DNA of 32,000 nt from Erysipelothrix larvae (GCF_001545095.1 NZ_CP013213.1:1710001-1742000); one strand, 5' to 3'; counted from the stretch's first letter, positions 2,450-26,416 are shown. Notes: generated from the letters alone by a model not told the origin. Numbers and translations: made by a program.

Positions 2450-3913
2450 ATGCATAACAAACGACTATTTTTTTCTTTAAATATCGATAAGCAATTCAGT
2501 AGGCAAGTTCAAGCACTTGAATTTTTGAGTGCTCAACAAACTGCTGTGAGTATTCATGAACTTGCGACACGCATTGGATGCTCAATTCCTACCTTAAGAA
2601 GTGACTTACAAGAGCTCAATAACAATTTACCAATTAACATTGAAATTCGATCGATGGGAAAAGATGGGTACATCTTAATTTATCCTCCGGGTATATCAAT
2701 TCCTGCATTAATTATGGAACTGGCGAAGGAAACGGATGTCTTCAGAATCCTTGATGCACTTTTCCACAATGATTCATATACTTTTGATGAATTAGTTGCG
2801 GAGTTATTTGTGAACCCAAGTACCTTGCGAAAAATATTGACACATATTAATCAAGTCATTACTGAATTTGGTGTATCTTTGTCTAAGTCTCCGATTCGAT
2901 TTATAGGAAGTGAAACGAATATCCGACTCTTCTTATATAATTTCTATTATGACTTTAATGATTATTTTACCGTTGACTGTGATTTTGAGAAAAACTACGA
3001 AGCGTATAAAACGATTATTGATGGAACCAGAAATAGTCTGTCCTTTCCATTACGATTCAGTTACTTCAGAGTTACCTTGTGGATAATGATCATTCGAAGG
3101 CGTATTCAGTCGAAGTGTTTTGTGGAACTGGACGATTCAATCAGACAGCGAATCCTTAATGAGGCTGATTTTGTTGAGTTTCAGTATTCATTCACCCATA
3201 CATTTGCAGAAAAGTTTTTGATTTATAAACCTCCCCTTGATGATATTATTTGGGCGTATACAATTTTCCTGCATTGCATCTCTTATAGTGAAATGGAACC
3301 GTTGGAGCAATCTGAGGATGTTAATGAATTGTATGTCTATCAGAACAGTGATCCACGACATCTTGAATCCATCAATAATTTTCTGAGTCTTGAGTTTGAG
3401 CCTTCGGTAATTGATGGTCCTCACTTACACAAAATGCGTACGTTTTTATTGAATCTTTCGATGTTGACCCATCTCTCTACACAGTTTCAACGAATTTCTG
3501 CTCTTACACGGATTTCTCTGAAAGAATCCTTAAATGAGTATTTTATGATTTGGATGCGTCACCTGTATTCAAAAGAGAGCCAGCGCATGTTTAACATTGA
3601 GTATCGTGAAGATATTGCGATTTCTTTGGCAATGATGCATTATTCAACTTTGACGCATTTAAAAAAACACAGCATTCGTGTGCTCTTTGCGTTTCAGGGT
3701 GAACCTGGCTATGATGATTTCTTAACCCAACAGACACAGTTTATGATTCCACAAAACATTGTGCCTCATTTCTCTTTTGATGAACCCATCTCTGAGGAAA
3801 TGATTTCGAGAACACAAGCTGAACTTGTTGTTACAAATTATGATTCACCTGAGTTTAATGATTTGAGTTGTGATATTGTGCGTTTATCCTATGTTCCAAG
3901 TAAGGGATATTAA
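2450..3913 (+). CDS. Mga/AtxA-family (PRD-containing virulence regulator-like) transcriptional regulator; native C-terminus replaced by GY-stop through IS insertion
   Basis: AAAGGAG RBS. N-terminal wHTH (VSIHELATRIGCSIPTLRSDLQELN), second Mga-type HTH (YTFDELVAELFVNPSTLRKILTHIN...IGSETNIRLF) and a C-terminal EIIB-like region (VLFAFQGEPGYDDF...LVVTNYD). It aligns end to end with the ORFs at 16918 and 24182 until codon 485, then diverges at the IS junction. Confidence 0.8.
   Translation: MHNKRLFFSLNIDKQFSRQVQALEFLSAQQTAVSIHELATRIGCSIPTLRSDLQELNNNLPINIEIRSMGKDGYILIYPPGISIPALIMELAKETDVFRILDALFHNDSYTFDELVAELFVNPSTLRKILTHINQVITEFGVSLSKSPIRFIGSETNIRLFLYNFYYDFNDYFTVDCDFEKNYEAYKTIIDGTRNSLSFPLRFSYFRVTLWIMIIRRRIQSKCFVELDDSIRQRILNEADFVEFQYSFTHTFAEKFLIYKPPLDDIIWAYTIFLHCISYSEMEPLEQSEDVNELYVYQNSDPRHLESINNFLSLEFEPSVIDGPHLHKMRTFLLNLSMLTHLSTQFQRISALTRISLKESLNEYFMIWMRHLYSKESQRMFNIEYREDIAISLAMMHYSTLTHLKKHSIRVLFAFQGEPGYDDFLTQQTQFMIPQNIVPHFSFDEPISEEMISRTQAELVVTNYDSPEFNDLSCDIVRLSYVPSKGY
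3897..3904. repeat. Left copy of the 8-bp target-site duplication CAAGTAAG
   Basis: The identical octamer occurs at 6430-6437, immediately outside the two IS ends. Confidence 0.85.
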
Positions 3914-4660: not shown

Positions 4661-4793
4661 GAAAAATAGTTTTAACTCCTCAGATTGAATATAATGAAGA
4701 TGGTTATTTAAATAACAGACAATCATTTTTATATTTAGGAGCAAGATACATAATGAAACCTTATCAAAATAGTCAAAGAGAGGCAGGGTTTCT

Positions 4794-6269: not shown

Positions 6270-6429
6270 GAAATGACTCATTATTGATATACTATAACAA
6301 AAAGAGGGAAGCTATAGTCATGTGCGACTACGCTTCCCTTTGGTCTTTAACAAACTTGTTTGGGGTAACTTACTCCCCAAGTTATTTTATATCATTTTCT
6401 GAATTATCCCCAAGTTATTTCAGACCGCC

Positions 6430-6437
6430 CAAGTAAG
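6430..6437. repeat. Right copy of the 8-bp target-site duplication CAAGTAAG
   Basis: Identical to 3897-3904. Confidence 0.85.
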
Positions 6438-6497
6438 ACTGAGTGGGATTCCTTGGGAAGTATCATCTTAACGCTCTCTGCAACGAATAATCGTTAA
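6438..6497 (+). pseudogene. Displaced 3' end (19 codons plus stop) of the regulator gene at 2450
   Basis: In frame after the duplicated ...AGT AAG it reads TEWDSLGSIILTLSATNNR-stop. This aligns with the paralog C-terminus SEWSTLSNIILSLSTTDKYA (24182 ORF). The restored protein would be 504 aa, against 505 aa for that paralog. Confidence 0.85.
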
Positions 6498-6507
6498 ACT
6501 TTCGCAT

Positions 6508-6535
6508 AAAAAAGACGATGCTGTCATCGTCTTTT
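6508..6535. terminator. Bidirectional rho-independent terminator
   Basis: AAAAAAGACGATG-CTGT-CATCGTCTTTT has an A-run on one side and a T-run on the other. It lies between the ancestral regulator stop (6497) and the convergent 549-aa gene stop (6541). Confidence 0.8.
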
Positions 6536-6540
6536 GTTTG

Positions 6541-8190: not shown

Positions 8191-8230
8191 CGTATATTCT
8201 CCTTAATCGGTTACCCTTTTTTCTACTAAC

Positions 8231-8239
8231 ATTGTACCA
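8231..8239 (-). promoter_or_regulatory. Extended -10 promoter TGGTACAAT for paralog 1
   Basis: The minus strand reads aaaTTGGTACAATgtt, 40 nt upstream of the ATG. The -35 position is AAAAGA, which is poor, so the promoter is likely activator dependent. Confidence 0.5.
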
Positions 8240-8356
8240 ATTTATAGCGGGTGTCTTTTTTGTATATTTTTATCAAGTTGAAAAATGACATCGTTTGTTT
8301 ATGAATGATGAAAATACGATGGATTTCTTCGTGGTGGGATTTGTAAATGAGGCATA

Positions 8357-8388
8357 TAAAAAAACTGAGTTTATTAGGCTCAGTTTTT
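8357..8388 (-). terminator. adhE rho-independent terminator
   Basis: The minus strand reads AAAAACTGAG-CCTAATAAA-CTCAGTTTTTTT, directly after the adhE stop at 8400. Confidence 0.75.
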
Positions 8389-8399
8389 GTTAAAGCTAT

Positions 8400-11036: not shown

Positions 11037-11218
11037 ACTTTGTCTCCTTGTTAATCAATTCACTAGTATCATATCAGTTATTATTTTTTTCACAAATAAT
11101 ATATGCAAATTAATTCGCATATTTTTTACAATTTTTTCCATGTAAGAATTGTAACCGCTTTGCTTGTGAAAAATATCACTTGTTTTGTTATTCTTTATGT
11201 TTTCATCACAGAAATCAT

Positions 11219-12052
11219 TTATACCTCAATGGTAGTACTCCAATTTTTTTGTGATTGTGGCTCAATCTTTTCAATACCAAATTTATGATTTAGGATTTTA
11301 TCATGATCGATCCGATCCCCAAATCCTGCCCATGGTTCCAAGCAAACAAACGGTGCTTGGGTTCCATCTTCAAGGGTTGGTGTCCAAATTCCAAGATGTG
11401 GATATGAGCGTACATCCATCGCAAGCTTACGTTTTCCATCATGAAGGATTACACGGTGTACTTCTTCAAATACCAAGGTCATGTTTTCATACGTCATCAT
11501 ATCAAAATCAACACGATACCCATCGAATTCAGTTTCACCATTACAATACGGTCCATCAAAGGTATATTGTTTAAATGGCTTAGGTCCTTGTAATTCAATA
11601 TATGCGTCTTTTGATTCGACGATAAATGCCGGATGATATCCAAAGCTGTAATACATATCTGTTTCCCCTGCGTTAACAATGGTCGCATCGATTAATAAAT
11701 TTCTTCCCAATAATGTATAGGCTATAATCACCTCAAAATCAAAAGGATATACTTCACGGGTCTTATCATTACTCATGAATTTTAGTGTACATGCTGTTTC
11801 AGTTTGATCCTCTACGCTAAAATCACTGTCTCGTAGGAACCCGTGTTGAGATAATGGGTAGGTTTTCCCGTCAACACTGTATTCATTATCTAGAAGACGT
11901 CCTACAATCGGAAATAAAAATGGTGCCACACGATTCCACCATGTTGCATCTTTATTCCATAAAATCGATTTCCCATCCACTGTAATGGATTCCAAACTTG
12001 CACCTTTAACAGTAATTTCTGCGATTACTTCATTATTTCTAATTTTAATCAT
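11219..12052 (-). CDS. Aldose 1-epimerase family protein (LacX/YihR-like)
   Basis: 277 aa. The motifs FLFPIVGRL, YPLSQHGFLR, FGYHPAF and CLEPW are characteristic of the small aldose-epimerase family. AAGGAGG RBS. Confidence 0.85.
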   Translation of the reverse strand: MIKIRNNEVIAEITVKGASLESITVDGKSILWNKDATWWNRVAPFLFPIVGRLLDNEYSVDGKTYPLSQHGFLRDSDFSVEDQTETACTLKFMSNDKTREVYPFDFEVIIAYTLLGRNLLIDATIVNAGETDMYYSFGYHPAFIVESKDAYIELQGPKPFKQYTFDGPYCNGETEFDGYRVDFDMMTYENMTLVFEEVHRVILHDGKRKLAMDVRSYPHLGIWTPTLEDGTQAPFVCLEPWAGFGDRIDHDKILNHKFGIEKIEPQSQKNWSTTIEV

Positions 12053-12246
12053 TGGTTCCTCCTTATATATTCACAATTATAATTATATAGGAATTACCTA
12101 GGTAACACTATGGTTTTCATAAACTCTTCACGATGATTCACAAAGATTTCGTATACATTTCAAGTAATTTTATGATACAGAAAAAAAATATTCACACTTT
12201 TGTTTATATCGAGATAATTTCATAAATGATGAGTTCTTCATAATAT

Positions 12247-12320
12247 CCTTACAGGAATTGCCTTATTCAAATAAAAATGAATACACTAAACAACAGATAA
12301 ACAAGGCAATTCTTATAAAG
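12247..12320. repeat. Inverted-repeat element, copy A: arms CCTTACAGGAATTGCCTT / AAGGCAATTCTTATAAAG around a ~38-nt loop
   Basis: The arms are complementary over ~14-17 bp. A second copy with near-identical arms and an unrelated loop is at 21699-21766. Both lie just downstream of a paralog gene and its terminator. Confidence 0.7.
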
Positions 12321-12347
12321 ACACTATAGACCTATTTGGGATAAAAC

Positions 12348-12387
12348 AATAAAGGAGCATAGTAGAAATCTAGTATGCTCCTTTATT
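12348..12387 (-). terminator. Terminator of paralog 2
   Basis: AATAAAGGAGCAT...ATGCTCCTTTATT stem followed, on the minus strand, by T-rich TTTATTGTTTTAT. It is homologous to the weaker hairpin at 21829-21851. Confidence 0.7.
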
Positions 12388-12414
12388 GATTAATGCTTTT
12401 TGATGATTGTTGTA

Positions 12415-14283
12415 TTAATCGCCAATTGAGATCCAAAGTCCTGGACGAACATAGCAAGGCTGATCATACGGTTTACTACTTCCTGGTTTACCATCACTAT
12501 AGATATTTGCGGCAACGAACGAGCTATTAGCTGGGCTTCGCAACCATGAAGACAATCCATCAACGATAGTCGCAGGAGCTATTTCATAATAATTTATATC
12601 TGAAACACTCAGAGCAAATGCAGTCTTAGTACCTGTTTGGCTAACATAAGAGTATGCGTAATCCTTAGTTTTCCAATCGGTGTATATACCCTCATCTTCT
12701 TCTACTTCATAATTTGCTGGAAGAACATAAGCATTGTCTGTATGACTCTTGATGTAATTGTTGTAATACTTTTCATTTACTTCTTCAAGATATGAACCCT
12801 CATAACCTTGATAATTAGCGCCTGTTTTGTTGAATCGAACTTTTCCACTAGAGTGCTCAAATCCCATGGATTGGATAACACTTGCTGAGAGAATATCACC
12901 GAGTAAAAGCGCAGTCTTATTTTGGGCATCAACATACACTATTGTATATATATGTCCAGCGAAGTTAATTGAATCTCCGACTTTCTTGTTTCCAAGATCA
13001 AAACCAGGTGCTTCAGCTTTTGGTTCGACATTTTTAATTGCATCTTCAAGGTCTTCAATCGCTTTGATAACATCTTCGATTGTTGTATTTGGATTATCAT
13101 ATGTGTTTTCGCCATTTTCGATAGCATTTTGAAGTTTATCACCAGACTCATCCGTTAATGTATCTTGATCAATTAGTTTTGCTTCATCAAGAAGGTCTTG
13201 AAGTTCTTGAAGTAAGTCTTCTAAGGTTTTGTTGTTAGAAGATCCTGGTGTTTTGATGTCTTCAAGCATATCGATGATATCAGAGTTTCCATCGGTCCAT
13301 AGTTTCAAGTCGTCTTGAGATACTGCATCCATTGATACATTGATTTGGTAGTTAGCAGTTCCTGTAGGTTGTTTTACAAGAGTTACACTTTCCAAGAAAT
13401 TTGGTGTCATTGTACTTGGTATTTTCGCAACATTACTGTGTTCAAGTGCTTGTCCCCAATAAACATATCCTTGATCACTAGTTGTGTCGATAATCCATTT
13501 CGCAACAGGTTGTTTTCCACCAGCAACCCATTCTTGAAGTGTGATTACTTCGCTACCCAATTGCCACTTAACATACTCATCAAATGGTGATTCAACGCCA
13601 TCCCACTTCTTAATTGTATATGTGCTTTGATCATTTTGCGCTGGTTTAACATCATGTTGTTTATCAGTGCGTGAAGAATCTGCATGATTTTCAACACCGT
13701 CTACAATTGATGTCATATCATCACCAGTTATTCCAGTTACAATATAGTTACCATATTGTCCATTAGGATCATGAGCTTGTGTTCTAATATAGTAGTATTC
13801 TTGCTTGTCAAAGTAACCTTTTAGTTTCTCAATGCGTTGATCATCTTCAAGATCATAATCATGATCGGTTAGATTCAAGGTCGCAAGGAATGCTTCTGCA
13901 GCTTCCTTTGTATCAAAACGATAGAAGTTCCCTTGAGTATCAATCATATAACGATGTCTTGTATAGACATACTCACGGCTTCCAATTTCCATGTACTCTT
14001 TGAATTGAAGACGAATAAATCCATCTTGATAAATTGCGTTGGTGTCGTTATTGTCTTCACCGTTTCGAACAGCAACACTCTTTGTAACTGCTTCACCTTT
14101 CTTCCAATTTGTAACCTCTTTAAAGTTCTCTACAAGAACAATATGATGTTCAAAATCAGCGGTACTAAAGCTGTTATTTTTATGCTGATCAAGGTTTTGC
14201 CATGCAAGTGACCCTGACAACAACAACGCGATAGCGATAGCGCCTGTCGTAAAGGTCGCTTTCTTTTTACGTGTTAGTTTCAT
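12415..14283 (-). CDS. Secreted protein, paralog 2 of 4: SipW-class leader, N-domain, FIVAR-like helical module, DUF6273-like C-domain
   Basis: The ORF track starts at GTG 14301, but that extension (GTGTTAAGGAGGAGAAAG) is itself the SD sequence. I call ATG 14283 (MKLTRKKKATFTTGAIAIALLLSGSLAWQNLDQHKNNSFST). C-terminus ...TAFALSVSDINYYE...SSWLRSP...VRPGLWISIGD. Confidence 0.85.
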   Translation of the reverse strand: MKLTRKKKATFTTGAIAIALLLSGSLAWQNLDQHKNNSFSTADFEHHIVLVENFKEVTNWKKGEAVTKSVAVRNGEDNNDTNAIYQDGFIRLQFKEYMEIGSREYVYTRHRYMIDTQGNFYRFDTKEAAEAFLATLNLTDHDYDLEDDQRIEKLKGYFDKQEYYYIRTQAHDPNGQYGNYIVTGITGDDMTSIVDGVENHADSSRTDKQHDVKPAQNDQSTYTIKKWDGVESPFDEYVKWQLGSEVITLQEWVAGGKQPVAKWIIDTTSDQGYVYWGQALEHSNVAKIPSTMTPNFLESVTLVKQPTGTANYQINVSMDAVSQDDLKLWTDGNSDIIDMLEDIKTPGSSNNKTLEDLLQELQDLLDEAKLIDQDTLTDESGDKLQNAIENGENTYDNPNTTIEDVIKAIEDLEDAIKNVEPKAEAPGFDLGNKKVGDSINFAGHIYTIVYVDAQNKTALLLGDILSASVIQSMGFEHSSGKVRFNKTGANYQGYEGSYLEEVNEKYYNNYIKSHTDNAYVLPANYEVEEDEGIYTDWKTKDYAYSYVSQTGTKTAFALSVSDINYYEIAPATIVDGLSSWLRSPANSSFVAANIYSDGKPGSSKPYDQPCYVRPGLWISIGD

Positions 14284-14367
14284 CTTTCTCCTCCTTAACA
14301 CTGGTACTGCTGGACGTGTCCTGCAAGTAAAACCATCTTACCAAGTGCATGATTTGAAAAAATAATA
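13264..14367. repeat. Tandem direct repeat, copy A (~1.1 kb; 5' two-thirds of paralog 2 plus leader and promoter)
   Basis: It aligns without gaps to 15463-16566 at a constant offset of 2,199 bp. The encoded ~340 aa differ at 9 positions by my count. Identity collapses outside these bounds. Confidence 0.9.
14335..14343 (-). promoter_or_regulatory. Extended -10 promoter TGGTAAGAT for paralog 2
   Basis: The minus strand reads acTTGGTAAGATgg, exactly 51 nt upstream of ATG 14283. The same element sits at 16534-16542. Confidence 0.55.
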
Positions 14368-14780
14368 AAAATTATTCCAGAGGAAAATATGCGTTGGATT
14401 TCGTTTGAGTACAATCATGAACGCTATTTTCTAATATTATTTCTAAATTTGGGAAATTTATATATTTTATTGATTCACTATGAAACTTACGTTATCATTC
14501 TTAACTCAAACTAAATAAATAGAGTTATACAGAGTTAATTATTCAGAAGTCGATGTTATCTATATACAGTAAATTACGTTTGTTTTTCTTATTTCAATTG
14601 ATTAATTTCAATCAATATATAACTTCTACGCAACAGTTTACTGGTACAAATCATTGTAAACTAGCGTTTGGCATCACATCATAATCAGAATACTATCCTA
14701 TTTATAAATTTGTTGCATCTCTTTTATATTATTCAACTGGCTTGTTATAACTGTAGCTATTTTCCCCCATTCAAAATAAT

Positions 14781-14828
14781 AAAAAAGGTTCTAGCGAGAA
14801 GAGAATCATTATCCCATTCGCTACAACC
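14781..14828 (-). terminator. Terminator of paralog 3, separating the two tandem genes
   Basis: GGTTCTAGCGAG (14787-14798) pairs with TTCGCTACAACC (14817-14828) with one mismatch. On the minus strand it is followed by TTTTTTATTATTTT. Confidence 0.65.
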
Positions 14829-14859
14829 TCATATTTATTAAGAAATAGTTAATCCGTAA

Positions 14860-16482
14860 TTATCTGTCAATTGAAATCCAAAGTGCGGGACGAACCAGGT
14901 TTATGTGATTAAACACTTGTCCTGCATATAGCTTACCATCCGTGTATATAGTTCCAGCTTGATCAACATCGCCACCCGGACTGCGAAGCCACGAACCAGT
15001 ACCATCTGCGAGATATACATCAGTCATTTTATAATAATTTATGTCCGAAACTGCTAATGCAAATGCAGTTTTTAGACCATTTTCGTGAATGTAAGAAAAC
15101 TTATCGTTCTTCACATTCCAATTACTTGGGTCGAATCCTTCTACTTGAAATATAGCTGGAAGAACGAATACATTGTCTTCGTGTGTAGAAACCTTCACCT
15201 CATAAAATTTGTCGATAACTTGTTTCAAATAAGATTCTTCGTACCCATCATATTCATCATTCGTTAGAATGTAACGGATTTCTCCACCATAATTGATAAT
15301 ATTCATCTCATTAAGAATATTCCCAGGGATAAAATCTCCTAAGATTAAGGCCGTTCTGTTTTTTTCGTCTATATATTCAATTGTGTATTCATGATCCGCA
15401 AAGATTATTTTATCACCTACACCCTTATCATCAATACTAAACCCTGGTGTTTGGTCTCCCCCAAGCATATCAATGATATCAGGATTTCCATCTATCCATA
15501 GTTTCAAGTCATCTTGAGATACTGCATCCATTGATACATTGATTTGGTAGTTAGCAGTTCCTGTAGGTTGTTTTACAAGTGTTACACTTTCCAAGAAATT
15601 TGGTGTCATTGTACTTGGTATTTTCGCAACATTACTGTGTTCAAGTGCTTGTCCCCAATAAACATATCCTTGATCACTATTTGTGTCGATAATCCATTTC
15701 GCAACAGGTTGTTTTCCACCAGCAATCCATTCTTGAAGTGTGATTACTTCGCTACCCAATTGCCACTTAACATACTCATCAAATGGTGATTCAACGCCAT
15801 CCCACTTCTTAATTGTATATGTGCTTTGATCATTTTGCGCTGGTTTAACATCATGTTGTTTATCAGTGCGTGAAGAATCTGCATGATTTTCAACACCGTC
15901 TACAATTGATGTCATATCATCACCAGTTATTCCAGTTACAATATAGTTACCATATTGTCCATTAGGATCATGAGCTTGTGTTCTAATATAGTAGTATTCT
16001 TGCTTGTCAAAGTAACCTTTTAGTTTCTCAATGCGTTGATCATCTTCAAGATCATAATCATGATCGGTTAGATTCAAGGTCGCAAGGAATGATTCTGCAG
16101 CTTCCTTTGTATCAAAACGATAGAAGTTCCCTTGAGTATCAATCATATAACGATGTCTTGTGTAGACATACTCACGGCTTCCAATTTCCATGTACTCTTT
16201 GAATTGAAGACGAATAAATCCATCTTGATAAATTGCGTTGGTGTCGTTATTGTCTTCACCGTTTCGAACAGCAACACTCTTTGTAACTGCTTCACCTTTC
16301 TTCCAATTTGTAACCTCTGTAAAGTTCTCTACAAGAACAATATGATGTTCAAAATTAGCAGTGCTAAAGCTGTTGTTTTTATGCTGATTAAGGTTTTGCC
16401 ATGCAAGTGACCCTGACAACAACAACGCGATAGCGATAGCGCCTGTCGTAAAGGTCGCTTTCTTTTTACGTGTTAGTATCAT
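14860..16482 (-). CDS. Secreted protein, paralog 3 of 4: SipW-class leader, N-domain, DUF6273-like C-domain, no helical module
   Basis: Start corrected from GTG 16500 to ATG 16482 (MILTRKKKATF...). The N-terminal ~340 aa are near-identical to paralog 2. C-terminus ...TAFALAVSDINYYK...GSWLRSPGG...VRPALWISIDR. Confidence 0.85.
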   Translation of the reverse strand: MILTRKKKATFTTGAIAIALLLSGSLAWQNLNQHKNNSFSTANFEHHIVLVENFTEVTNWKKGEAVTKSVAVRNGEDNNDTNAIYQDGFIRLQFKEYMEIGSREYVYTRHRYMIDTQGNFYRFDTKEAAESFLATLNLTDHDYDLEDDQRIEKLKGYFDKQEYYYIRTQAHDPNGQYGNYIVTGITGDDMTSIVDGVENHADSSRTDKQHDVKPAQNDQSTYTIKKWDGVESPFDEYVKWQLGSEVITLQEWIAGGKQPVAKWIIDTNSDQGYVYWGQALEHSNVAKIPSTMTPNFLESVTLVKQPTGTANYQINVSMDAVSQDDLKLWIDGNPDIIDMLGGDQTPGFSIDDKGVGDKIIFADHEYTIEYIDEKNRTALILGDFIPGNILNEMNIINYGGEIRYILTNDEYDGYEESYLKQVIDKFYEVKVSTHEDNVFVLPAIFQVEGFDPSNWNVKNDKFSYIHENGLKTAFALAVSDINYYKMTDVYLADGTGSWLRSPGGDVDQAGTIYTDGKLYAGQVFNHINLVRPALWISIDR

Positions 16483-16566
16483 CTTTCTCCTCCTTAACAC
16501 TAATACTGCTGGACGTGTCCTGCAAGTAAATCCATCTTACCAAGTGAATGATTCGAAAAAATAATA
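15463..16566. repeat. Tandem direct repeat, copy B
   Basis: Partner of 13264-14367. Confidence 0.9.
16534..16542 (-). promoter_or_regulatory. Extended -10 promoter TGGTAAGAT for paralog 3
   Basis: Same sequence and the same 51-nt spacing to the ATG as at 14335-14343. Confidence 0.55.
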
Positions 16567-16833
16567 TTTGTTATTTATGTTTGAAAAAAGAACGATTCAT
16601 ATTTCAAAAATAGAAAAATTAATGGTCAAAATTTGTTTGATATTTACCTTTATGGTAAGTTCCGTAGTTTTCTTTACTTATGATATGTGCTTATCTTCAA
16701 ACCTTGTCTTGAAACTAACATGAAACCCAATTTACAAGTGACATATTGTACATAATTAAGTGTTAAATAAGGAAGGCAGCAAAAAATTACGTAAAAATAG
16801 AAATTTCTAACACCAAATTGGACCTTACAATAA

Positions 16834-16842
16834 TGTTATAAT
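16834..16842 (+). promoter_or_regulatory. Candidate extended -10 promoter TGTTATAAT for regulator 2
   Basis: aaTGtTATAATc lies ~75 nt upstream of ATG 16918. No clear -35. Confidence 0.4.
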
Positions 16843-16917
16843 CTAAATATATAAAATAAATTGATATCTTTTACCTTAAGTACGATTTTAAATTGCAAAT
16901 AACAAAAGGAGATGGCG

Positions 16918-18468
16918 ATGCAAAATCATCTATTTTTTGCTTTAAATAATAATAAACAATTGTGTAGGCAAATTAAAACATTGACCTATATGCGCTCTCA
17001 CGACAGCCCAATGAGTATTAATGAACTGGTACAACATGTGGGATGCTCTATCCCAACAATGCGTCAAGACATCAATAACCTCAATGATGAGCTTATGGGC
17101 TATTTGAAAATTGTATCCAACGATAAAGATGGGTATACATTATCATTGGATACGATGAGTATGGATGCGATTTTGGTGAAGATGGCTAAAGAGAGTGATG
17201 TTTTTCGTATTATTGATGACATTTTCCATCATGAAATCCATACCTTTGATGAATTACTTGCAGATTTATACCTATCGCCAACTAAACTAAGGAAAACATT
17301 AAATCATATAAACACCGTGCTTGTTTCTTATAATATTGCGCTTTCCACACGATATGTTGATCTTATTGGATGTGAATCGGATATCCGTTACTTCTTCTTT
17401 GCCTTCTACAGTGATTTTAATGATTTTTTCACCATTGATAGTAACTTTGATCGGAGGGAGTATATTTATCAGGTGTTTCATGAACGCGCAATTCAGAGTA
17501 TCATCCCTCATTTTCACTTAAGCAACTTTAGAATGACCTTATGGAGTATAATCATCCATAATCGTATTAAACACCAAAGATTTGTAAGGGTTGACGATCA
17601 TCTTAAAGAGGAATTGCAAGTTTTTGTTTCGTTTGAAAAGTTTAAAGAAGCGTTTATCGATGTGTATCGCAATGCATTCTTAATTCATAACCCTCCCCTT
17701 GATGATATTATCTGGGCGTATGCCATGCTTTTACATAGTGTATCCTACAGCGGACCCAGCCATAGCATTTTTAGTCACTACATCAAGGATTATACACACC
17801 TTGAAACGATTCCTTTGGAATTATCGCAGCGTGTTGAATCCTTATTAATGCATCAATTTGATGAACCAACGATTCACAGTACAGCAATTGATCCGGTTCG
17901 TTCTTATTTGATTAACCTTTCAATTCTTACACGTATTTCACCACAACTTCAACGCGTGTCGAAGTCTTTTAAGCTCTTTGCACACGAGACCATTGATGAT
18001 TTAGTCATCCTTTGGATGAACCATCTCGAGACCCCTGAAGCAAAAGGGTTATTACCAATTGTCTTCAAGGAAGATGTTGCGTGTTCATTAGCAATGCTTC
18101 ATTTCTCTTTTATCAGCCACCAAAAGGATTTTGACCTCTGTGTTCTGTTTGCTTTTCATGGTGAACCTGGATATGATGACTTTCTCATGTATCTATCGCA
18201 ATTTATGATTCCTAAAAATGTAACAACTGCGTTTTTGTTTGACAAGCCAATCACACATGATATCTTGAATCTTGTAAACACTGATTTGGTTGTAACAAAT
18301 TATGACTTACCCGATGCACATAAGATGCAGTGTGATGTCATTCAATTATCCTACATACCCAGTATGGCTGAATGGACTTCACTTCGAAATGCAATTCTCA
18401 ATTTGGCTGCTTCAAAGCATTCGCGAAGTAAACCCGATGAAGACATGGATTCACATTCTTTCTCATAA
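16918..18468 (+). CDS. Mga/AtxA-family (PCVR-like) transcriptional regulator, paralog 2
   Basis: The ORF track starts at 16912, directly abutting AAGGAG. The second ATG (16918) gives MQNHLFFALNNNKQLCRQI, which matches the MHNKRLFFSLN / MQSKRLFFLLN starts of the paralogs. Same HTH, Mga and EIIB-like blocks (VLFAFHGEPGYDDF...LVVTNYD). Confidence 0.8.
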   Translation: MQNHLFFALNNNKQLCRQIKTLTYMRSHDSPMSINELVQHVGCSIPTMRQDINNLNDELMGYLKIVSNDKDGYTLSLDTMSMDAILVKMAKESDVFRIIDDIFHHEIHTFDELLADLYLSPTKLRKTLNHINTVLVSYNIALSTRYVDLIGCESDIRYFFFAFYSDFNDFFTIDSNFDRREYIYQVFHERAIQSIIPHFHLSNFRMTLWSIIIHNRIKHQRFVRVDDHLKEELQVFVSFEKFKEAFIDVYRNAFLIHNPPLDDIIWAYAMLLHSVSYSGPSHSIFSHYIKDYTHLETIPLELSQRVESLLMHQFDEPTIHSTAIDPVRSYLINLSILTRISPQLQRVSKSFKLFAHETIDDLVILWMNHLETPEAKGLLPIVFKEDVACSLAMLHFSFISHQKDFDLCVLFAFHGEPGYDDFLMYLSQFMIPKNVTTAFLFDKPITHDILNLVNTDLVVTNYDLPDAHKMQCDVIQLSYIPSMAEWTSLRNAILNLAASKHSRSKPDEDMDSHSFS

Positions 18469-18474
18469 AACTCA

Positions 18475-18498
18475 AAAGGAGTCACTGACTCCTTTTTA
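18475..18498. terminator. Bidirectional terminator between regulator 2 and the LPETG gene
   Basis: AAAAGGAGT-CACTG-ACTCCTTTTT, flanked by A and T runs, in the 35-bp convergent gap. Confidence 0.75.
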
Positions 18499-18503
18499 AG
18501 TGT

Positions 18504-21080
18504 TTATGAATTGGATTCGTTGTGTGATCCTTTTTTCAAGTGTGCAAAGCGTCTTAACTCTTGTAATGCAAAGGTTAATCCTCCAAGACAGACGAGTAAG
18601 AATCCTATAAATGCAGTGTTTCTATGCTCAGTTCCGGTTTCTGGTAGATCTGGTTTTGATGGTTTAACCGGTTTAGGTTCTTCATCAATGCGTTTTTCAT
18701 ACGTGTTGGTGAAGGTAATTGAATCCACAATTTGTCCGGCTTTTGTATAAGTAACCTGATCAACTACAAGTTTCAGTCTTTGTTCACTGACACTTACTTG
18801 AACTGTAACAGGGTCCATATCATATTCATACTCAGAAGTTCGATCGACGATTTCTCGAATGACATAGGTATAAGTGCCTACTTTGGTAAAGGTAATTTCT
18901 CCAAAGGATGCACTCCCTTCCCCATTTATGAGTACAGTGCTTGTATCTTGAACGGGTGCGTTGTTCATCCCCGTCAGTTTAAATGCAAAGGTTTCATCGG
19001 GTGCATTTCCATCGGATTTGATAATCTTACTAATATCAAATTGAAGGCTTGTTGGGACACGGTATGTGAGCTTAATGACATAATTGTCTAAGTATTCGAT
19101 TTCAAAATGTTCGCGGTCTTTTGTTCTGACATAATACTCGATTTCATTGCCATCTTTATCATACTTCGGCACTTCAAACTCAAACTTCCAATCCTGGTCT
19201 TTGTTTGTGGTTGTACATGCAATTTCAACACCATCGCCATTATAAACACACACTTCAATTTCATCTGGAATCACATGATCATAGCCATCTGGAACATTCC
19301 AAATCACTTCCCCTTCAATGATATTGTTGATGATTGATTTATCAAAGGTGTTGACCGCTTTAACATGCGTCGTCGTTCCTTCAACTGCATTCCCTTTTCC
19401 ATTGAATAGATTTAGAATATACCCCTCTTGCTGATAGTCTTTTTCTTTAACTTCATAGTGTGCTCCAGGTTTTACTTCAATCGTTTTAGATTGACCATGT
19501 TTCAACGTGAATGACTCTGTAACACCATCGATTGTGAGTGTAAACTCAAATGCTTTATTTAAGTCTCCTTCACCAACTACTTCTTTTCTTATTTCTAGAA
19601 GCGTTTTTTGTGGTTCAGGTATGAAACGGTTTTTAAAGGTTACAGTTGTATCCTTACGATCCACCACTCCACTCACTGTATTAACAAGTTCTTGATATGT
19701 TTCAAGATCTTGTTCATGGATTTCGTAGGTTGTGCCATAGGGAATGTTCTCAAATACAGCAGTTGAATTTGCTGGGATTTGAAGTGTTGACCCTTCATCA
19801 TACTTCACAGGATTTCCACCGTCAATTGACACAGTAAGTTCTTCAATATGTTCACTAAATGATACGGTAAATGTGAAACTGTCTTTAAGCGTGGTTCCCA
19901 CAACATCTTTTTTAACAATAAGCGATCCCGTCTTTGCTTCAGGTGTATCGTTTAGATAGGTATTGGTCACGACATATTCCATCACTGTATCGCGTGATGT
20001 TGTCCCTTGGATCTCATTGTGTGAACTACTATATCCTTGATTGCTTGCATCAGTTTCCTTGATTGTGTACTTCAAATTGTCTTTGTGTGTCTGTACCACA
20101 AGGGTGTCATAATGTTTGAGCATAATTGTGTCTCCACTTGCGAGTTCAAATGGGATCGAACCATTTAACGATGCAAAGTAGGTCATGCCGTCTTCAAATG
20201 TAATGGTAAATTCAAATTCAGTCAGAAGTTGGTCTAAGGATAATTGTGAACCATCCCGATTCACAACGTGCTTTGTGAGAATAAACGATCCATCCCCTTT
20301 TTCTTCATCAATTACATGAGTAATGGTTACATCATCATGCCCTTTAAGAATTCCTGTAACATCTGTGATATCGGGTGTGTAGCCTTCTTTAGGAATGGTT
20401 TGTATAGAGTATTCAAGACCACATGGAAGGTTTTCGAAAAGAATGGATTCAAGGTGTTTCAAAAAGACTGAACCTGTTCCATCAATCACACCGCTTTGAT
20501 TACTTCCTGTAAAGGTATATGGATAGGATTTTCCATCACTAAATGTAATCACGTACTCAAACTCAAGATTGCGTTGATCATCACTGAGCATGGTGCCATT
20601 ACTGTTTTTCACGATATTCAACAGTTCAAGTGAACATGTATTACATACACTATAGGTTTGAACTAATACATACTTTTTGAGACTACAATCAACACTAAAT
20701 TCAAACTTGAGTGGGTCTTCTAACTGTTCATCAAGATAAAAATCATATCCAGAAGGCGGCATAATTCCCTTGAAGTAATAGTCCCCTGATTCAAGATGCA
20801 GGGTAACTTCTCCTGATTCATTTGTTGTGTAAATATCACCGATACGTTCATCTCCAAGCTCGTTTTTACGGTACAATTCAAAGCTTGCACCTTCTAACAT
20901 TTTACTTGTATTCAGTTCTGAATTATCAAGAATAACAACACATTGATTAAACTCTGTTCCAAAGTTTGCGGTTTTGTGTTGCGTATCATCATACCAAGCA
21001 CTGAGTGTTGAGATTGTAAGGAGCATGACAAATAATGCAATGACCCCCGATTTGATTTTCTTATACGCTCGTTTTCTCAT
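18504..21080 (-). CDS. LPETG cell-wall-anchored multi-domain surface protein: SpaA/Cna-B prealbumin folds and a Spy0128/FctA-like pilin isopeptide domain, with a SipW-class leader
   Basis: Leader MRKRAYKKIKSGVIALFVMLLTISTLSAWYDDTQHKTANFGTE. SpaA-type block FELYRKNE...NESGEVTLHLESGDYYFKGIMPPSGY. Cna-B-like block IEGEVIWNVPDG...DWKFEFEVPKYDKDGNEIEYYV. FctA-like block ETFAFKLTG...GEITFTKVGTYTYVIREI...ITFTNTY. C-terminal LPETG, hydrophobic segment and basic tail. Confidence 0.9.
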   Translation of the reverse strand: MRKRAYKKIKSGVIALFVMLLTISTLSAWYDDTQHKTANFGTEFNQCVVILDNSELNTSKMLEGASFELYRKNELGDERIGDIYTTNESGEVTLHLESGDYYFKGIMPPSGYDFYLDEQLEDPLKFEFSVDCSLKKYVLVQTYSVCNTCSLELLNIVKNSNGTMLSDDQRNLEFEYVITFSDGKSYPYTFTGSNQSGVIDGTGSVFLKHLESILFENLPCGLEYSIQTIPKEGYTPDITDVTGILKGHDDVTITHVIDEEKGDGSFILTKHVVNRDGSQLSLDQLLTEFEFTITFEDGMTYFASLNGSIPFELASGDTIMLKHYDTLVVQTHKDNLKYTIKETDASNQGYSSSHNEIQGTTSRDTVMEYVVTNTYLNDTPEAKTGSLIVKKDVVGTTLKDSFTFTVSFSEHIEELTVSIDGGNPVKYDEGSTLQIPANSTAVFENIPYGTTYEIHEQDLETYQELVNTVSGVVDRKDTTVTFKNRFIPEPQKTLLEIRKEVVGEGDLNKAFEFTLTIDGVTESFTLKHGQSKTIEVKPGAHYEVKEKDYQQEGYILNLFNGKGNAVEGTTTHVKAVNTFDKSIINNIIEGEVIWNVPDGYDHVIPDEIEVCVYNGDGVEIACTTTNKDQDWKFEFEVPKYDKDGNEIEYYVRTKDREHFEIEYLDNYVIKLTYRVPTSLQFDISKIIKSDGNAPDETFAFKLTGMNNAPVQDTSTVLINGEGSASFGEITFTKVGTYTYVIREIVDRTSEYEYDMDPVTVQVSVSEQRLKLVVDQVTYTKAGQIVDSITFTNTYEKRIDEEPKPVKPSKPDLPETGTEHRNTAFIGFLLVCLGGLTFALQELRRFAHLKKGSHNESNS
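18507..18647 (-). other. Sortase sorting signal: LPETG (18633-18647), TM segment, charged tail
   Basis: The minus strand reads GAT CTA CCA GAA ACC GGA ACT = DLPETGT. This is followed by AFIGFLLVCLGGLTFAL and QELRRFAHLKKGSHNESNS. Confidence 0.9.
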
Positions 21081-21679
21081 AAATCAATAACGTTCTTCCT
21101 TTCTTTTTTCAATTCTTTCAAATAATCACTTGCTGAATTTTTAAATGCAATGATGAGAATAACAATAACACCACTTAGGATATAGTTCTCTTTAATGTAA
21201 GAAATATAGATTCCCAACTGAGGAACGGTTAGTTTTACTTCTCCGATCACATTGGCAGCATAGACTTTTTCTTTGTCAATCTCATCGTTATCAACACCTT
21301 TTGTACTGAAAGCAAGTCCATTGCCTTCATAGTTGTCAATCACTTCAACGATTTCGTGGGTAACAATACTCACCTTGCCATTGATTTTGGTGTAATAGGT
21401 GATGTATTCACCCACCTCTAAGGTTTCAGGATCATCTCGATGTGTTACAATGAGGGACCCTCTTGGCATGACTGAACGCATTGAATCGGTTTGAATGTAG
21501 AAGATTGAGGTATCAAAGAGTGTCTTTGCTTCATCTGGACGCTGGTTTTGCAATACAACCAAAACAATAATAAGTCCAATTAACGCATAGAACAGTATCT
21601 CAGAAAGCGACTTCATGACGCTTGAAATTCGATGTTTTTTTATGGGTTTCAATGTTTCGTTCGTTTGGTTTTCATTCAT
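21077..21679 (-). CDS. sipW: Signal peptidase I, ER/archaeal type (SipW-like, S26B)
   Basis: 200 aa with N- and C-terminal TM segments. TDSMRSVMPRGSLIV, VTHEIVEV and TKGVDND line up with SipW SGSMEP, THRI and KGDNN, so the Ser and His are retained. AAGGAAG RBS. The stop overlaps the ATG of the 858-aa ORF (ATGA). Confidence 0.85.
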   Translation of the reverse strand: MNENQTNETLKPIKKHRISSVMKSLSEILFYALIGLIIVLVVLQNQRPDEAKTLFDTSIFYIQTDSMRSVMPRGSLIVTHRDDPETLEVGEYITYYTKINGKVSIVTHEIVEVIDNYEGNGLAFSTKGVDNDEIDKEKVYAANVIGEVKLTVPQLGIYISYIKENYILSGVIVILIIAFKNSASDYLKELKKERKNVIDL

Positions 21680-21698
21680 GGCTATCTTCCTTATCTAT

Positions 21699-21766
21699 CC
21701 TTATAGGAATTGCCTTGTACAAGAATTTGGCTGGCGGAATAGGTTCACAAGGCAATTCTTATAAAG
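21699..21766. repeat. Inverted-repeat element, copy B: arms CCTTATAGGAATTGCCTTG / CAAGGCAATTCTTATAAAG around a ~30-nt loop
   Basis: Near-identical arms to copy A (12247-12320) with an unrelated loop. It ends 20 nt upstream of the sipW ATG, just 5' of its RBS. Confidence 0.7.
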
Positions 21767-21886
21767 ATAACTCATAATTAATTGAGTTGTCTTTATGTCA
21801 TAGTTAATGGTTTACAAACAAGGATCAAGGAGACATACTCAAGTATGCTCCATTGATCGTGTTATTAACTAATATTTGTACTCGTT

Positions 21887-23743
21887 TTATTTAGTAATCG
21901 AAATCCAAAGTGCAGGGCGTAATGCATTAGTGCCTGTTGTACCATTAGCAGTTGTTAATCTTCCTTGGCTGTTTACGATTGCTACATTTACGTTTCCATT
22001 TGCAGGTGTTCTCAACCATACTTCTGTATTTGCATCCAAGATAGTATTTGATATACCATAACGATTTACATCAGATACACTGAGTGAGAATGCTGTTTTT
22101 GTTCCATTTTCATCTACAGTTGTTGGTGTCGCACTTGAAGAATTCCAGTTTGTACTTGCTGATTCAGCTGGTAGGTTTACAGCTAACACAAACTCACTAT
22201 CTTGTTTTCCATTAATAAATGTATTATAGAATGCTGTATCAGCAGTCTTTAGATATGATCCAGAGTAAGCGGTTCTTGAAGTGCCATTATTTTGGTATCG
22301 CACTTGATTGCTCAATATTCCGTGATTAATATCTGCAGTATTCAGATCCGAGTATGATAATACATCAGATAGAATCAATGCAGTGTTCGCTGCTTCATCA
22401 ATATAAGCGATTGTGAAAGTACGGTTAGCAAATTGAATCTTATCCCCTACTTTTTTACCTGTGATGTCAAAACCTGTTGCTTTTACAACAAGGTTATCCA
22501 TAACATCTTGAAGGTTATCAATTGCATTTTGCACTTCTTCAGCTGTTACACCTGATTTATCATGAACTGTTTCACCATTATTGATTGCATCAAGTAAGTC
22601 TTGAGCTGATGCATCTTCTAGTGTAGTTGAGTCAATGAGTTTTGCTTCATCGATGAGATCTTGAAGTTCTTGTAGAAGTTCTTTAAGTTGAGTGTCCTCA
22701 ACAGGTGCTGATCCCTCACTGCCTTTTAACATATTCACGATGTCTTTGTTTCCATTAACCCATAGGTCAAGGTCTTCAATGGATACTGCATCCATAACTA
22801 CATTAATTTGGTAGAATGCTGTACCATTAGGTTGTTCAATCAATGTTACAGTTTCTAAGAAGTTTGGAGTAAGTGTTTCAGGAACTGAAGCAGTCTTGCT
22901 GTGTGCAAGTGCTTGACCCCAATATACCCAACCTTCATCACTCGTTGTATCAATGATCCACTTCGCTACTGGTTGTTTTCCACCTTCAATCCATTGTTCC
23001 AATGTAATGACATCTTCTCCTAATTGCCATTCAACATATTTTTCAAATGCTGAAGTTGAATCATCCCATGTTTTCACAGTGTATTGTGATTCATTATTAT
23101 CTGCAGGATTTTCATCGTGTTGTTTATCATTACGTGCTGATTCAGATTGGTTTGTTTGACCATCAATAATTGATTTCATTTCTTCTTCAACATCAAGGAT
23201 TACAAACTTACCATATTGTCCATTTGGATCATGTGCTTGGGTACGGATGTAGAAATATGCTTGGTCATCAAAGTATCCTTTTTGCGAAACAATACGATCT
23301 TGTGGATCTAGATCAGAATCATAATCTTTTTGGTCTAGTGTTGCTAAGAACGCTTCTGCTTCTGCTTGAGTTGAAAAACGGTAGAAGTTTCCATCTGTAT
23401 CGATCATATAACGATTTTCGCTATATACATAGGTACGTTCGCCAATTTCCATATACTCTTTAAATTGTAAACGGATGTATGCATCCTTATATATAGATTT
23501 AGCTGTGTCAGCGTCTTCACCATTTCTTACAGAAACAGCTTTAACGATTGCTTGACCTTTTTCCCATTCACTTACTTCTTCAAAGTCTTCAATCAATGTT
23601 ACATTGAAGTCTACTGTTTTCGTTGTGAAATTGTTGGTCTTGTGCTGTGTATAATCATGCCACGCAAGTGACCCAGATAATAGTAAGGCGATTGCCAGAG
23701 CACCCGTTGTTACGGTTGCTTTCTTTTTATGTGTTAATTTCAT
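21887..23743 (-). CDS. Secreted protein, paralog 4 of 4: SipW-class leader, N-domain, FIVAR-like helical module, DUF6273-like C-domain
   Basis: Start corrected from GTG 23761 to ATG 23743 (MKLTHKKKATVTTGALAIALLLSGSLAWHDYTQHKTNNFTT). C-terminus ...TAFSLSVSDVNRYG...EVWLRTP...LRPALWISITK. Confidence 0.85.
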   Translation of the reverse strand: MKLTHKKKATVTTGALAIALLLSGSLAWHDYTQHKTNNFTTKTVDFNVTLIEDFEEVSEWEKGQAIVKAVSVRNGEDADTAKSIYKDAYIRLQFKEYMEIGERTYVYSENRYMIDTDGNFYRFSTQAEAEAFLATLDQKDYDSDLDPQDRIVSQKGYFDDQAYFYIRTQAHDPNGQYGKFVILDVEEEMKSIIDGQTNQSESARNDKQHDENPADNNESQYTVKTWDDSTSAFEKYVEWQLGEDVITLEQWIEGGKQPVAKWIIDTTSDEGWVYWGQALAHSKTASVPETLTPNFLETVTLIEQPNGTAFYQINVVMDAVSIEDLDLWVNGNKDIVNMLKGSEGSAPVEDTQLKELLQELQDLIDEAKLIDSTTLEDASAQDLLDAINNGETVHDKSGVTAEEVQNAIDNLQDVMDNLVVKATGFDITGKKVGDKIQFANRTFTIAYIDEAANTALILSDVLSYSDLNTADINHGILSNQVRYQNNGTSRTAYSGSYLKTADTAFYNTFINGKQDSEFVLAVNLPAESASTNWNSSSATPTTVDENGTKTAFSLSVSDVNRYGISNTILDANTEVWLRTPANGNVNVAIVNSQGRLTTANGTTGTNALRPALWISITK

Positions 23744-23794
23744 CTTTCTCCTCCTTAACACTGTATTGCAAGGTAACCTCCTGCAACTACTTTG

Positions 23795-23803
23795 ATTTTA
23801 GCA
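23795..23803 (-). promoter_or_regulatory. Extended -10 promoter TGCTAAAAT for paralog 4 and possibly the sipW operon
   Basis: The minus strand reads aaaTTGCTAAAATcaa, exactly 51 nt upstream of ATG 23743. This is the same spacing as paralogs 2 and 3. The last 20 nt of the leader are identical in all three. Confidence 0.5.
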
Positions 23804-24181: not shown

Positions 24182-25699
24182 ATGCAAAGCAAACGTTTAT
24201 TCTTTCTATTGAACTTTGATAAGCAATTTAGTCGGCAAATACAGACAATTGAATATTTAAGTTCACTTAAAACGCCCATTAGTATTAACGATCTTTCGAT
24301 AAAAATTGGTTGTTCTATGCCGACAATGCGTAGTGATATTAACGCCTTAAACAATGAACTTCCAAACACTGTTCAAATTGAAGCACAAGGAAAAGATGGT
24401 TATGTATTACGTGCACCGGATGGGATATCCATGCCATCGATTATTATGGATTTAGCGAAAGAAACGGATGTTTTTCGAATCATTGATTCGCTCTTCAACA
24501 ATCAAGTCTATACCTTCGATGAGATGGTATCAGAATTGTTTATTAATCCCTGTACCCTTCGAAATATCTTGGCCCACATTAATTCAATTATTAAGCATTT
24601 TAACATCTCTATTTCGACCTCTCCGGTAACCTTCATTGGTTCTGAAACAGATATTCGTTTGTTCTTTTATAAATTCTATTATGATTTTAATGATTACTAT
24701 ACGGTTGATCCTGAATTTAATAAGAACTACAATGCCTATATTTCTATCATTAGTGATTCAAAAGAAAGCATTACCCCTCGAATTCATGTGAGTCATTTTA
24801 GAGCAACACTTTGGATTATGATTATTCGACAACGGATTCAAGCGAAATTGTATGTGGAGTTGGATGATGCCTTCAAACATCAAATTATGGCAAATGAAGA
24901 TTTCGAATGTTTCAAACAATCCTTTACGGCTGCTTTCGCAAGTTCTTTCTATATATATAAACCACCCCTCGATGACATCATCTGGGCGTATGTTGCACTT
25001 TTACACTGCATATCCTATAGTGAGCCATCCCGTAACCTATTTACAGACGATAAATATGAGTATGTGTTGCACCGGTGTGTTAGTCAAGATTTAATCGATC
25101 GTGTCAATGACTTTTTGGCTCTTGAGTTTGATATGGAAACCGTAAAAAGTCCATACCTTGATAAGATGCGGGCTTACCTGATTAATTTATCGATGTTAAC
25201 GAATTTGTCTCCTCAGTTTCAAAGTTTATCCGTCACAACACGTCTATTTGTTACCGAGTCGCTCAATGAATACTATATGATCTGGATGAAAAATTTGTAT
25301 TCAAAAGAAGGACAAGCATTGTTCCCTATTATTTGCCGTGATGATATTGCACTCGCACTTGCGATGCTTTATTATTCTGTATTAAGCAATTTAAGAAAAC
25401 ACGACATTCGCATTCTCTTTTGCTTTCAAGGGGGTGTTGGCTATGACGATTTTCTAGTCCAACAGACTCGAAGCATGATTCCGCAAAATGTCGTTCCATT
25501 CTATGTTTTTGATCAAATCATTACTGAAGATATCTTTAAGAAAACAAATGCTGACCTTGTAGTTGTGAATTATGACTCTCCTGAATTTAATAATTTATCC
25601 ACACGCGTGATTCATTTTTCATACATTCCAACCATGTCGGAATGGTCCACATTGAGTAATATTATCTTGAGTCTATCCACTACCGATAAATACGCCTAA
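24182..25699 (+). CDS. Mga/AtxA-family (PCVR-like) transcriptional regulator, paralog 3
   Basis: GAAGGAG RBS. 505 aa. ISINDLSIKIGCSMPTMRSDINALN, YTFDEMVSELFINPCTLRNILAHIN...IGSETDIRLF, ILFCFQGGVGYDDF...LVVVNYD. It is the closest paralog of the 2450 ORF. Confidence 0.8.
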   Translation: MQSKRLFFLLNFDKQFSRQIQTIEYLSSLKTPISINDLSIKIGCSMPTMRSDINALNNELPNTVQIEAQGKDGYVLRAPDGISMPSIIMDLAKETDVFRIIDSLFNNQVYTFDEMVSELFINPCTLRNILAHINSIIKHFNISISTSPVTFIGSETDIRLFFYKFYYDFNDYYTVDPEFNKNYNAYISIISDSKESITPRIHVSHFRATLWIMIIRQRIQAKLYVELDDAFKHQIMANEDFECFKQSFTAAFASSFYIYKPPLDDIIWAYVALLHCISYSEPSRNLFTDDKYEYVLHRCVSQDLIDRVNDFLALEFDMETVKSPYLDKMRAYLINLSMLTNLSPQFQSLSVTTRLFVTESLNEYYMIWMKNLYSKEGQALFPIICRDDIALALAMLYYSVLSNLRKHDIRILFCFQGGVGYDDFLVQQTRSMIPQNVVPFYVFDQIITEDIFKKTNADLVVVNYDSPEFNNLSTRVIHFSYIPTMSEWSTLSNIILSLSTTDKYA

Positions 25700-25778
25700 A
25701 CCTTGCCTAAATTTAAGACCACATTACTTTACTTTATAGTACTTTATGTTTACGATAAAGGTACAAGGAGGCTCAAAT

Positions 25779-26414: not shown

Positions 26415-26416
26415 AC

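Follow-up and report, generated by a model that had tools for sequence, protein, structure and literature searches.

Genes A and B share a near-identical 5' block

We analysed a 32,000-nucleotide stretch of Erysipelothrix larvae DNA (NZ_CP013213.1, positions 1710001-1742000; hereafter the window), in which two tandem genes, A and B, carry a long direct repeat. The window contains four paralogs (A, B, C and D), all on the minus strand. Each is tripartite: a SipW-type signal peptide is followed by an N-domain of ~310 amino acids (aa) and a C-terminal DUF6273 (C-type-lectin-like) domain. Coordinates are collected in Table 1. Between A and B, amino acid identity is 97.4% in the N-domain and 43.8% in the C-domain. 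The corresponding values are 62.8% and 38.3% for A and C, 51.6% and 35.1% for A and D, and 54.4% and 38.7% for C and D. Note that the C-domain of B is nearest to that of A, since its identity to C and D is 34-38%.

An earlier note on this DNA, prepared from the sequence alone, described a 2,199-base pair (bp) tandem duplication. The offset and the order of the units stand, but near-identity spans only 1.1 kb of each 2.2-kb unit. Within that block the copies align without gaps at the offset given in the note, with 23 mismatches in 1,104 nucleotides (nt). A repeat finder, an ungapped scan and BLAST of the window against itself agree. The block delimited by BLAST is wider (13244-14367 and 15443-16566, 97.3% identity) and includes a weaker 20-nt extension to 13244.

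Both ends of the block are sharp. In 30-nt windows, identity rises from 0.27-0.53 (background 0.2-0.5) to 0.83-1.0 at the 3' edge, near 13260, and drops from 0.87 to 0.37 at the upstream edge, near 14368. Background identity is reached within ~30 nt in both cases. The profile is thus a step, as described in the note, and not a gradual decay. In the codon alignment of A and B, identity is at least 0.90 through aa column 340 and 0.43-0.70 thereafter. Codon 340 is also where the N-domain ends, as set by stand-alone family members of 343-353 aa. Upstream, identity extends to minus-strand TATTATTTTTT, 84 nt before the ATG, exactly where the note placed its limit. Hence, 84 noncoding nt belong to the homogenised block.

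Nine amino acid differences (K2I, D32N, D43N, K55T, A131S, V253I, T268N, T330I and S334P) lie in the block, and all had been listed correctly. Mismatches are unevenly spread. Six of the 23 fall within 13273-13312, adjoining the DIIDML codons; the cluster reported there is real, but there are others. The upstream edge has 5 mismatches in 65 nt, and an internal patch at codons 32-55 has 6 in 71 nt (scan p 0.006). Of the 23, 11 are in the outer 50 and 65 nt, a rate of 9.6% compared to 1.2% inside (Fisher p 4.5e-6, for windows chosen post hoc). Neither the internal patch nor the other A/B differences gave a consistent donor pattern from paralog C or D. Beyond the block, the module of ~80 aa ascribed to one gene of the pair corresponds to residues 341-423 of A, which match FIVAR weakly (E 3e-4), and has no counterpart in B.

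Gene A starts with an ATG that has AGGAGG upstream. The alternative GTG at 14301, listed by the open reading frame (ORF) tool, is less likely and is disfavoured by the family alignment. The element TGGTAAGAT, which resembles an extended -10 sequence, lies 51 nt ahead of each ATG, so this match and its leader are inside the block, as had been proposed. In the alignment, TTGnTAAnAT is common to all four paralogs. A scan for consensus promoters and terminators listed neither the extended -10 element nor the hairpins. The former was not listed because the -35 region is poor. Each gene is followed by its own terminator-like hairpin; hence, A and B are apparently transcribed separately. No Rfam RNA family matched anywhere in the window.

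Table 1. Positions of the genes, repeat copies, signals and neighbours discussed in the text
Feature	Positions	Strand	Basis or remark
Repeat copy 1: promoter-like region, leader, signal peptide and complete N-domain (codons 1-340) of A	13264..14367	-	97.9% identical, ungapped, to copy 2
Repeat copy 2: same module of gene B	15463..16566	-	Junctions confirmed in second strain
Gene A, 622 aa: SipW-type signal, N-domain, FIVAR-like 80-aa linker, DUF6273-like C-domain	12415..14283	-	
Gene B, 540 aa: N-module as in A, no linker, divergent DUF6273-like C-domain	14860..16482	-	
C-terminal cassette of A, residues 425-622, C-type-lectin-like DUF6273 fold	12415..13011	-	AF2 model, Foldseek, sub-threshold Pfam
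FIVAR-like helical linker of A, residues 341-424; in C too, not in B or D	13012..13263	-	
C-terminal cassette of B	14860..15462	-	43.8% aa identity to that of A, dS above 2
Extended -10-like TGGTAAGAT of A; copy for B at 16534-16542	14335..14343	-	Sequence match only
Terminator-like hairpin 3' of A	12341..12394	-	Folding: -23.2 kcal/mol, z -6.2
Terminator-like hairpin and U-run 3' of B	14785..14830	-	Folding: -20.3 kcal/mol, z -3.8
Paralog C, 618 aa, first gene of C-sipW-LPETG operon	21887..23743	-	
Paralog D, 549 aa	6541..8190	-	
SipW-type (archaeal-type) signal peptidase I	21077..21679	-	TIGR02228, 66 bits, above cut-off
858-aa LPETG-anchored stalk protein: SpaA, Cna_B, FctA, DUF7601	18504..21080	-	
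Mga/AcpB/EbpR/MafR-family regulator, divergent from B	16912..18468	+	NF053736, 170 bits
Second Mga/EbpR-family regulator, divergent from C	24182..25699	+	
Third Mga-family regulator	2450..3913	+	

The repeat is present in an independent strain

Repeats carry a general risk of error in assemblies, and the note had named a falsely duplicated or collapsed contig as a possible source of the near-identity. We compared the window with Logan assembly SRR6161627, which was reached via the protein cluster of paralog C. This sequencing run is from a nudivirus-infected rhinoceros beetle (PMC10485680). Three contigs cover the repeat junctions. Contig L003 is 99.72% identical to window positions 16517-32000 and ends at 16517. 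Contig L004 matches 9200-13342 with 100% identity and ends at 13342. Contig L005 is 100% identical to 14318-15541 and ends there on both sides. Every one of these ends is exactly k-1 = 30 nt past the last base that separates the copies. Such behaviour is that of a k=31 graph at a true repeat. Indeed, the 30-nt rule foretold L005 (14318-15541, with a 226-aa partial product), and a look-up of that product then gave the contig. All four junctions between repeat and unique DNA were thus found in SRR6161627. The copies differ at 23 sites and, in this independent assembly, the edge variants are each tied to their own unique flank. Hence, the repeat is not an assembly artefact.

The strains are close. 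Across 15.5 kb they differ by 43 single nucleotide polymorphisms (SNPs), strongly clustered, and the C-terminal cassettes of A and B are 100% identical between them. One difference touches the repeat itself. Position 16531 in the B copy, 3 nt downstream of the -10-like element, differs from its equivalent in the A copy (14332) in the window. In the second strain the B copy has the A-type base, so that both copies have T. At least one change must therefore postdate the split of the strains, and would be either a new mutation in the window strain or a micro-conversion in the other. Of the 43 SNPs, 15 are in 22100-22472, the DUF6273 cassette of paralog C, where ~12 are synonymous and 3 change an amino acid. 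A further 19 are in NAD-binding and VanZ genes at 25998-27463. Both clusters look like imported recombination patches.

Gene conversion as the likely origin of the mosaic

Divergence between A and B is a mosaic. By the Nei-Gojobori method, synonymous (dS) and nonsynonymous (dN) divergence across codons 29-340 are 0.05 and 0.011. In the C-domain, the proportion of synonymous differences is 0.71, dS is saturated (>2) and dN is 0.49. The ratio of N-domain dN to C-domain dN is 0.47-0.61 in other paralog pairs and 0.02 for A and B. Purifying selection alone would not be expected to produce this pattern, since synonymous and noncoding sites are homogenised too. In particular, the 84 noncoding nt lie in the block, so protein selection cannot account for their identity. 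We rejected this explanation, together with an assembly artefact, given the dS of 0.05 in the N-domain block and the junctions in the second strain; that either is correct is extremely improbable.

The note had offered a choice between duplication with cassette replacement and gene conversion. A mosaic is what we found (dS 0.05 versus >2), and the evidence favours the second alternative. We infer that A and B are likely to be long-standing tandem paralogs, in which gene conversion recently homogenised the promoter and N-domain. In the proposed scheme, A and B would be ancient tandem duplicates in a family of SipW-processed surface proteins, each built from a BsaA/TasA-like N-terminus, a large N-domain and a variable C-terminal binding domain. 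Recent non-reciprocal homologous recombination (intragenomic gene conversion), as one event or several overlapping ones, would have written the promoter core, leader, signal peptide and whole N-domain of one gene over those of the other. The DUF6273 lectin-like cassettes would have been left with their ancient divergence.

Several observations fit conversion. The tract stops at the promoter core and at the boundary between N-domain and linker, presumably because pairing is limited to sequence that is still similar. The -10-like element and ribosome-binding region are common to the four paralogs, which argues that ancestral homology extended that far. Mismatches are edge-heavy and patchy. This suggests repeated tracts that rarely reached the edges, rather than one clean duplication. 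Relationships among the C-domains (A and B closest, then C and D) match those of the N-domains; an old A/B duplication therefore suffices and a foreign cassette is unnecessary. In other organisms, tandem paralogs of the family share 66-82% nucleotide identity, which plausibly resembles the state of A and B before conversion.

In the main alternative, the whole 2.2-kb unit could have been duplicated recently, and one C-terminal cassette, with its downstream flank, later replaced, through homologous recombination, by a divergent allele from another strain. The same pattern at the block ends would be expected, and the 15 SNPs in the C-domain of paralog C indicate that imported patches do strike cassettes. 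However, two events are needed, along with an unseen donor that happens to resemble the cassette of A most, and the pile-up of mismatches at both edges is left unexplained. Nor is there residual similarity 3' of the A and B stop codons, and the A and B cassettes are unchanged in the second strain. Overall, we regard duplication followed by import as unlikely.

Some points weigh against conversion. The sole close relative, a strain with 99.7% identity, shows the same arrangement, and moderately diverged orthologous loci were not found. When relatives of A were sought in species-representative genomes, only two distant loci turned up (35-38% identity). The edge windows in the mismatch test were picked after inspecting the data. 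In addition, duplication of the 5' module plus recombination would give much the same pattern, and the SNP cluster in the C-domain of paralog C shows that allelic exchange of cassettes takes place in this species as well.

Conversion between paralogs is familiar from tufA/tufB in Salmonella, the tandem emm-like genes under Mga in Streptococcus pyogenes, and opa in Neisseria. As a mechanism, segmental conversion within a tandem pair of surface-protein genes is of a known kind. As in those systems, a near-identical segment that includes synonymous and noncoding sites has anciently diverged flanks. Like the emm-like genes, A and B are tandem surface-protein genes beside a Mga-family regulator. 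Here, unlike in tuf, emm and opa, it is the promoter and the putative N-terminal assembly module that are homogenised, and a C-terminal lectin-like domain that is divergent. What was described as a duplication would thus be a clean, independently confirmed case of segmental conversion in a family of surface proteins, with a tract that keeps to a domain boundary.

Consequences of the direct repeats

With a length of 1.1 kb and 98% identity, the direct repeats are well suited to recombination, and RecA-mediated deletion or amplification between them is plausible. Deletion would remove the cassette of B and place that of A behind the upstream region of B, beside the regulator. Amplification would add extra B-type units. 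Only loss or multiplication of the B cassette is possible in this way; hence, there is no reversible switch.

This bears on whether the repeats could be a programmed device, serving RecA-dependent deletion, amplification or cassette shuffling of the displayed tip in the manner of pilE/pilS. Surface adhesin families often vary like this. However, A and B are both complete, each with a promoter-like element and a terminator-like hairpin, so the promoterless partial donor cassettes of pilE/pilS have no equivalent among them and there are no silent cassettes. Deletion would lose the B cassette irreversibly, the two-copy junctions are the same in both strains, and near-identical repeats are absent at other loci of the family. 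We consider a programmed device very unlikely.

The N-domain defines a large family with a partial match to BsaA

BsaA from Clostridium perfringens, TasA from Bacillus subtilis, and CalY are SipW-dependent biofilm fibre proteins, which polymerise through exchange of N-terminal donor strands (PMC11580942, PMC9674648, PMC7395162). For BsaA, this exchange is reported to be locked by an intermolecular N35-K74 isopeptide bond with catalytic E56, and neighbourhoods of its family to be rich in LPXTG/SpaA proteins and multiple paralogs (PMC11580942). A-D share with these proteins an adjacent sipW, a SipW-type signal peptide and a partial match to TIGR04090 (BsaA family). As for BsaA, there are several paralogs per locus and a neighbour with LPXTG and SpaA domains. 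The TIGR04090 match covers residues 7-77 only (model positions 1-69, E 1e-11 to 5e-9) and scores 27.5-44.6 bits (36-45 for A, B and C, 27.5 for D), under the cut-off of 60. The same partial match occurs in 46 of 63 family members. Within this region, Asn37, Glu52 and Lys68 are conserved at 90% or more in 101 diverse members, and are candidate counterparts of N35, E56 and K74 of BsaA. The Peptidase_M73/camelysin model hit paralog C only (20.6 versus a cut-off of 22.5).

There are also clear differences from BsaA, TasA and CalY. The match is below cut-off and restricted to the first ~70 residues, the N-domain has ~310 rather than ~200 residues, and no Pfam model covers it. Foldseek, with an AlphaFold2 (AF2) model of the N-domain (predicted local distance difference test score, pLDDT, 79.6), found no significant match in the PDB, the best E being 0.09. 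The TasA fibre 8aur ranked sixth (E 0.63, template modelling (TM) score 0.15-0.21). Using hhalign, the alignment to TasA was weak (probability 15%, residues 13-78 only) and is no more than a lead. A PDB sequence search with the family profile recovered Big_2 parts of homologs and nothing for the N-domain. Furthermore, A-D carry large C-terminal domains, and their polymerisation is a prediction. We suggest that the N-module acts in polymerisation or attachment. A donor strand at its N-terminus would slot into an adjacent subunit, and an Asn-Lys isopeptide bond may lock it there. Homology and gene context are the basis for this assignment and for those of a wall anchor and binding tips below.

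An exhaustive profile search with the N-domain gave 1,036 cluster representatives at E<=1e-3, of which 224 were at E<=1e-30, so the family has ~1,000 clusters, defined at 50% identity. Among the best 150 hits listed, the domain is almost always N-terminal, in proteins of 235-1886 aa. C-terminal additions in 63 members were Big_2 (21), DUF6273 (10) and FIVAR (8), and also Glug, Flg_new and CBM. The idea of a constant scaffold with a variable tip, which the note drew from A and B, is therefore apparent family-wide. An LPXTG-like tail was found in none of 141 family representatives. The work thus flags a sizeable family, in which what looks like a BsaA/TasA-type assembly module of enlarged size is joined to exchangeable binding domains.

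In the best-scoring database relative, P0037 (1407 aa), the N-domain profile matched four separate stretches after an acidic leader of ~400 aa. This protein may have internally repeated N-domains.

C-terminal domains resemble C-type lectins

Matches to DUF6273 (PF19789) score 16.8, 17.6 and 21.4 bits, compared to a gathering threshold of 23.5, and involve only the last ~50 residues. In the 10 other family members with this domain, matches reach E 3e-21. An AF2 model of the A C-domain has a pLDDT of only 72. When searched alone by word-indexed homology, this domain returned nothing and, with a 7-sequence profile, only 4 hits; hence, the model rests on a shallow alignment. Foldseek nonetheless matched it to 9qa6 (E 9e-4, probability 1.0), and to several phage DUF6273 or receptor-binding proteins (E 5e-5 to 6e-3, TM 0.45-0.55). 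Structure 9qa6 is the Thomasclavelia ramosa IgA protease, of which the N-terminal domain is DUF6273 (PMC10743442, PMC12402451), described as C-type-lectin-like (PMC10743442). The C-domain of A thus resembles the phage and T. ramosa domains at the level of the fold, and the WLRSP...RPALW motif is present. In contrast to these, Pfam scores here are sub-gathering and diversity arises via diverged paralogs, with no diversity-generating retroelement in the window. The C-domains of A-D are probable ligand-binding tips. The close relative of this bacterium is from a rhinoceros-beetle sample, and those distant loci that have a named source are from termite gut. Hence, the tips may mediate attachment in the insect gut.

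In paralog C, an Asn/Thr-rich stretch (ANGNVNVAIVNSQGRLTTANGTTGTNA, 21890-22000) separates WLRTP from LRPALW, the site where diversity-generating retroelements mutate C-lectin folds. We found no reverse transcriptase domain in the scanned ORFs and no matching repeat in the self-BLAST of the window that would indicate such an element.

The sipW and LPETG context

Paralogs C and D, sipW, the LPETG protein and the regulators were missed by the earlier note and give A and B functional meaning. The sipW gene overlaps the start of the gene for the 858-aa LPETG protein. The N-terminus of this protein (LSAWYDDTQHKTANF) combines a SipW-type signal with an AW..D.QHK..NF strand, as in A-D, although the conserved Asn is one position off (QHKTANF; Ala37/Asn38). 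LPETG occurs in this protein only, and no sortase was found among the window ORFs. The locus resembles sortase-assembled Gram-positive pili (SpaA/Ebp), in that it has an LPETG-anchored multi-Ig protein with isopeptide-type domains and EbpR-family regulators. Unlike SpaA/Ebp pili, there is no pilin-specific sortase in the window, A-D lack LPXTG, and processing is predicted to be by SipW. The 858-aa protein is probably the wall anchor.

Similar arrangements occur in two distant termite-gut genomes, L001 (a Bacillota) and L002 (an Oscillospiraceae contig), where sipW immediately precedes family genes. L001 has, in addition, a gene for an LPETG protein (15635-17053), which starts AWRDYSQHKTNEF. 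Both it and the LPETG protein of the window have a SipW-type signal and an AW.D.QHK..NF strand, without the N-domain itself.

A more speculative model is a so far undescribed kind of Gram-positive surface fibre. A sortase-anchored LPETG stalk, having only a BsaA-type N-terminal donor strand, would plug into the large N-domains of SipW-processed subunits, which may also chain to one another, and each subunit would present a different C-type-lectin-like tip. Conversion would keep the docking and polymerisation module of A and B identical, so that tips are interchangeable on one fibre. In L001, sipW again occurs with N-domain genes and with an LPETG protein that starts AW.DYSQHKTNEF, which counts in favour. 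If true, such a model would join sortase anchoring to polymerisation of the TasA type. The gene family, together with its sipW/LPETG context, is poorly characterised and offers a more interesting lead than the conversion mechanism.

Other features were apparent at these loci. In L002, three tandem genes encoding only the N-domain (5483-8477) come right after sipW and have 75-82% nucleotide identity. The sipW-like ORFs of L001 (8680-9936, 418 aa) and L002 (4200-5333, 377 aa) have ~190-230 extra N-terminal residues, which could be a true fusion or an effect of ORF calling. In the window, an ISL3-family transposase gene (491 aa), with a DUF6431 ORF ahead, occupies 4190-6269 (plus strand) between the third regulator and paralog D. 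The element may have separated the two, and had no match among plasmids. Finally, adhE and aldose 1-epimerase genes (8400-12052, minus strand) lie between D and A in the same orientation, and so split the adhesin cluster.

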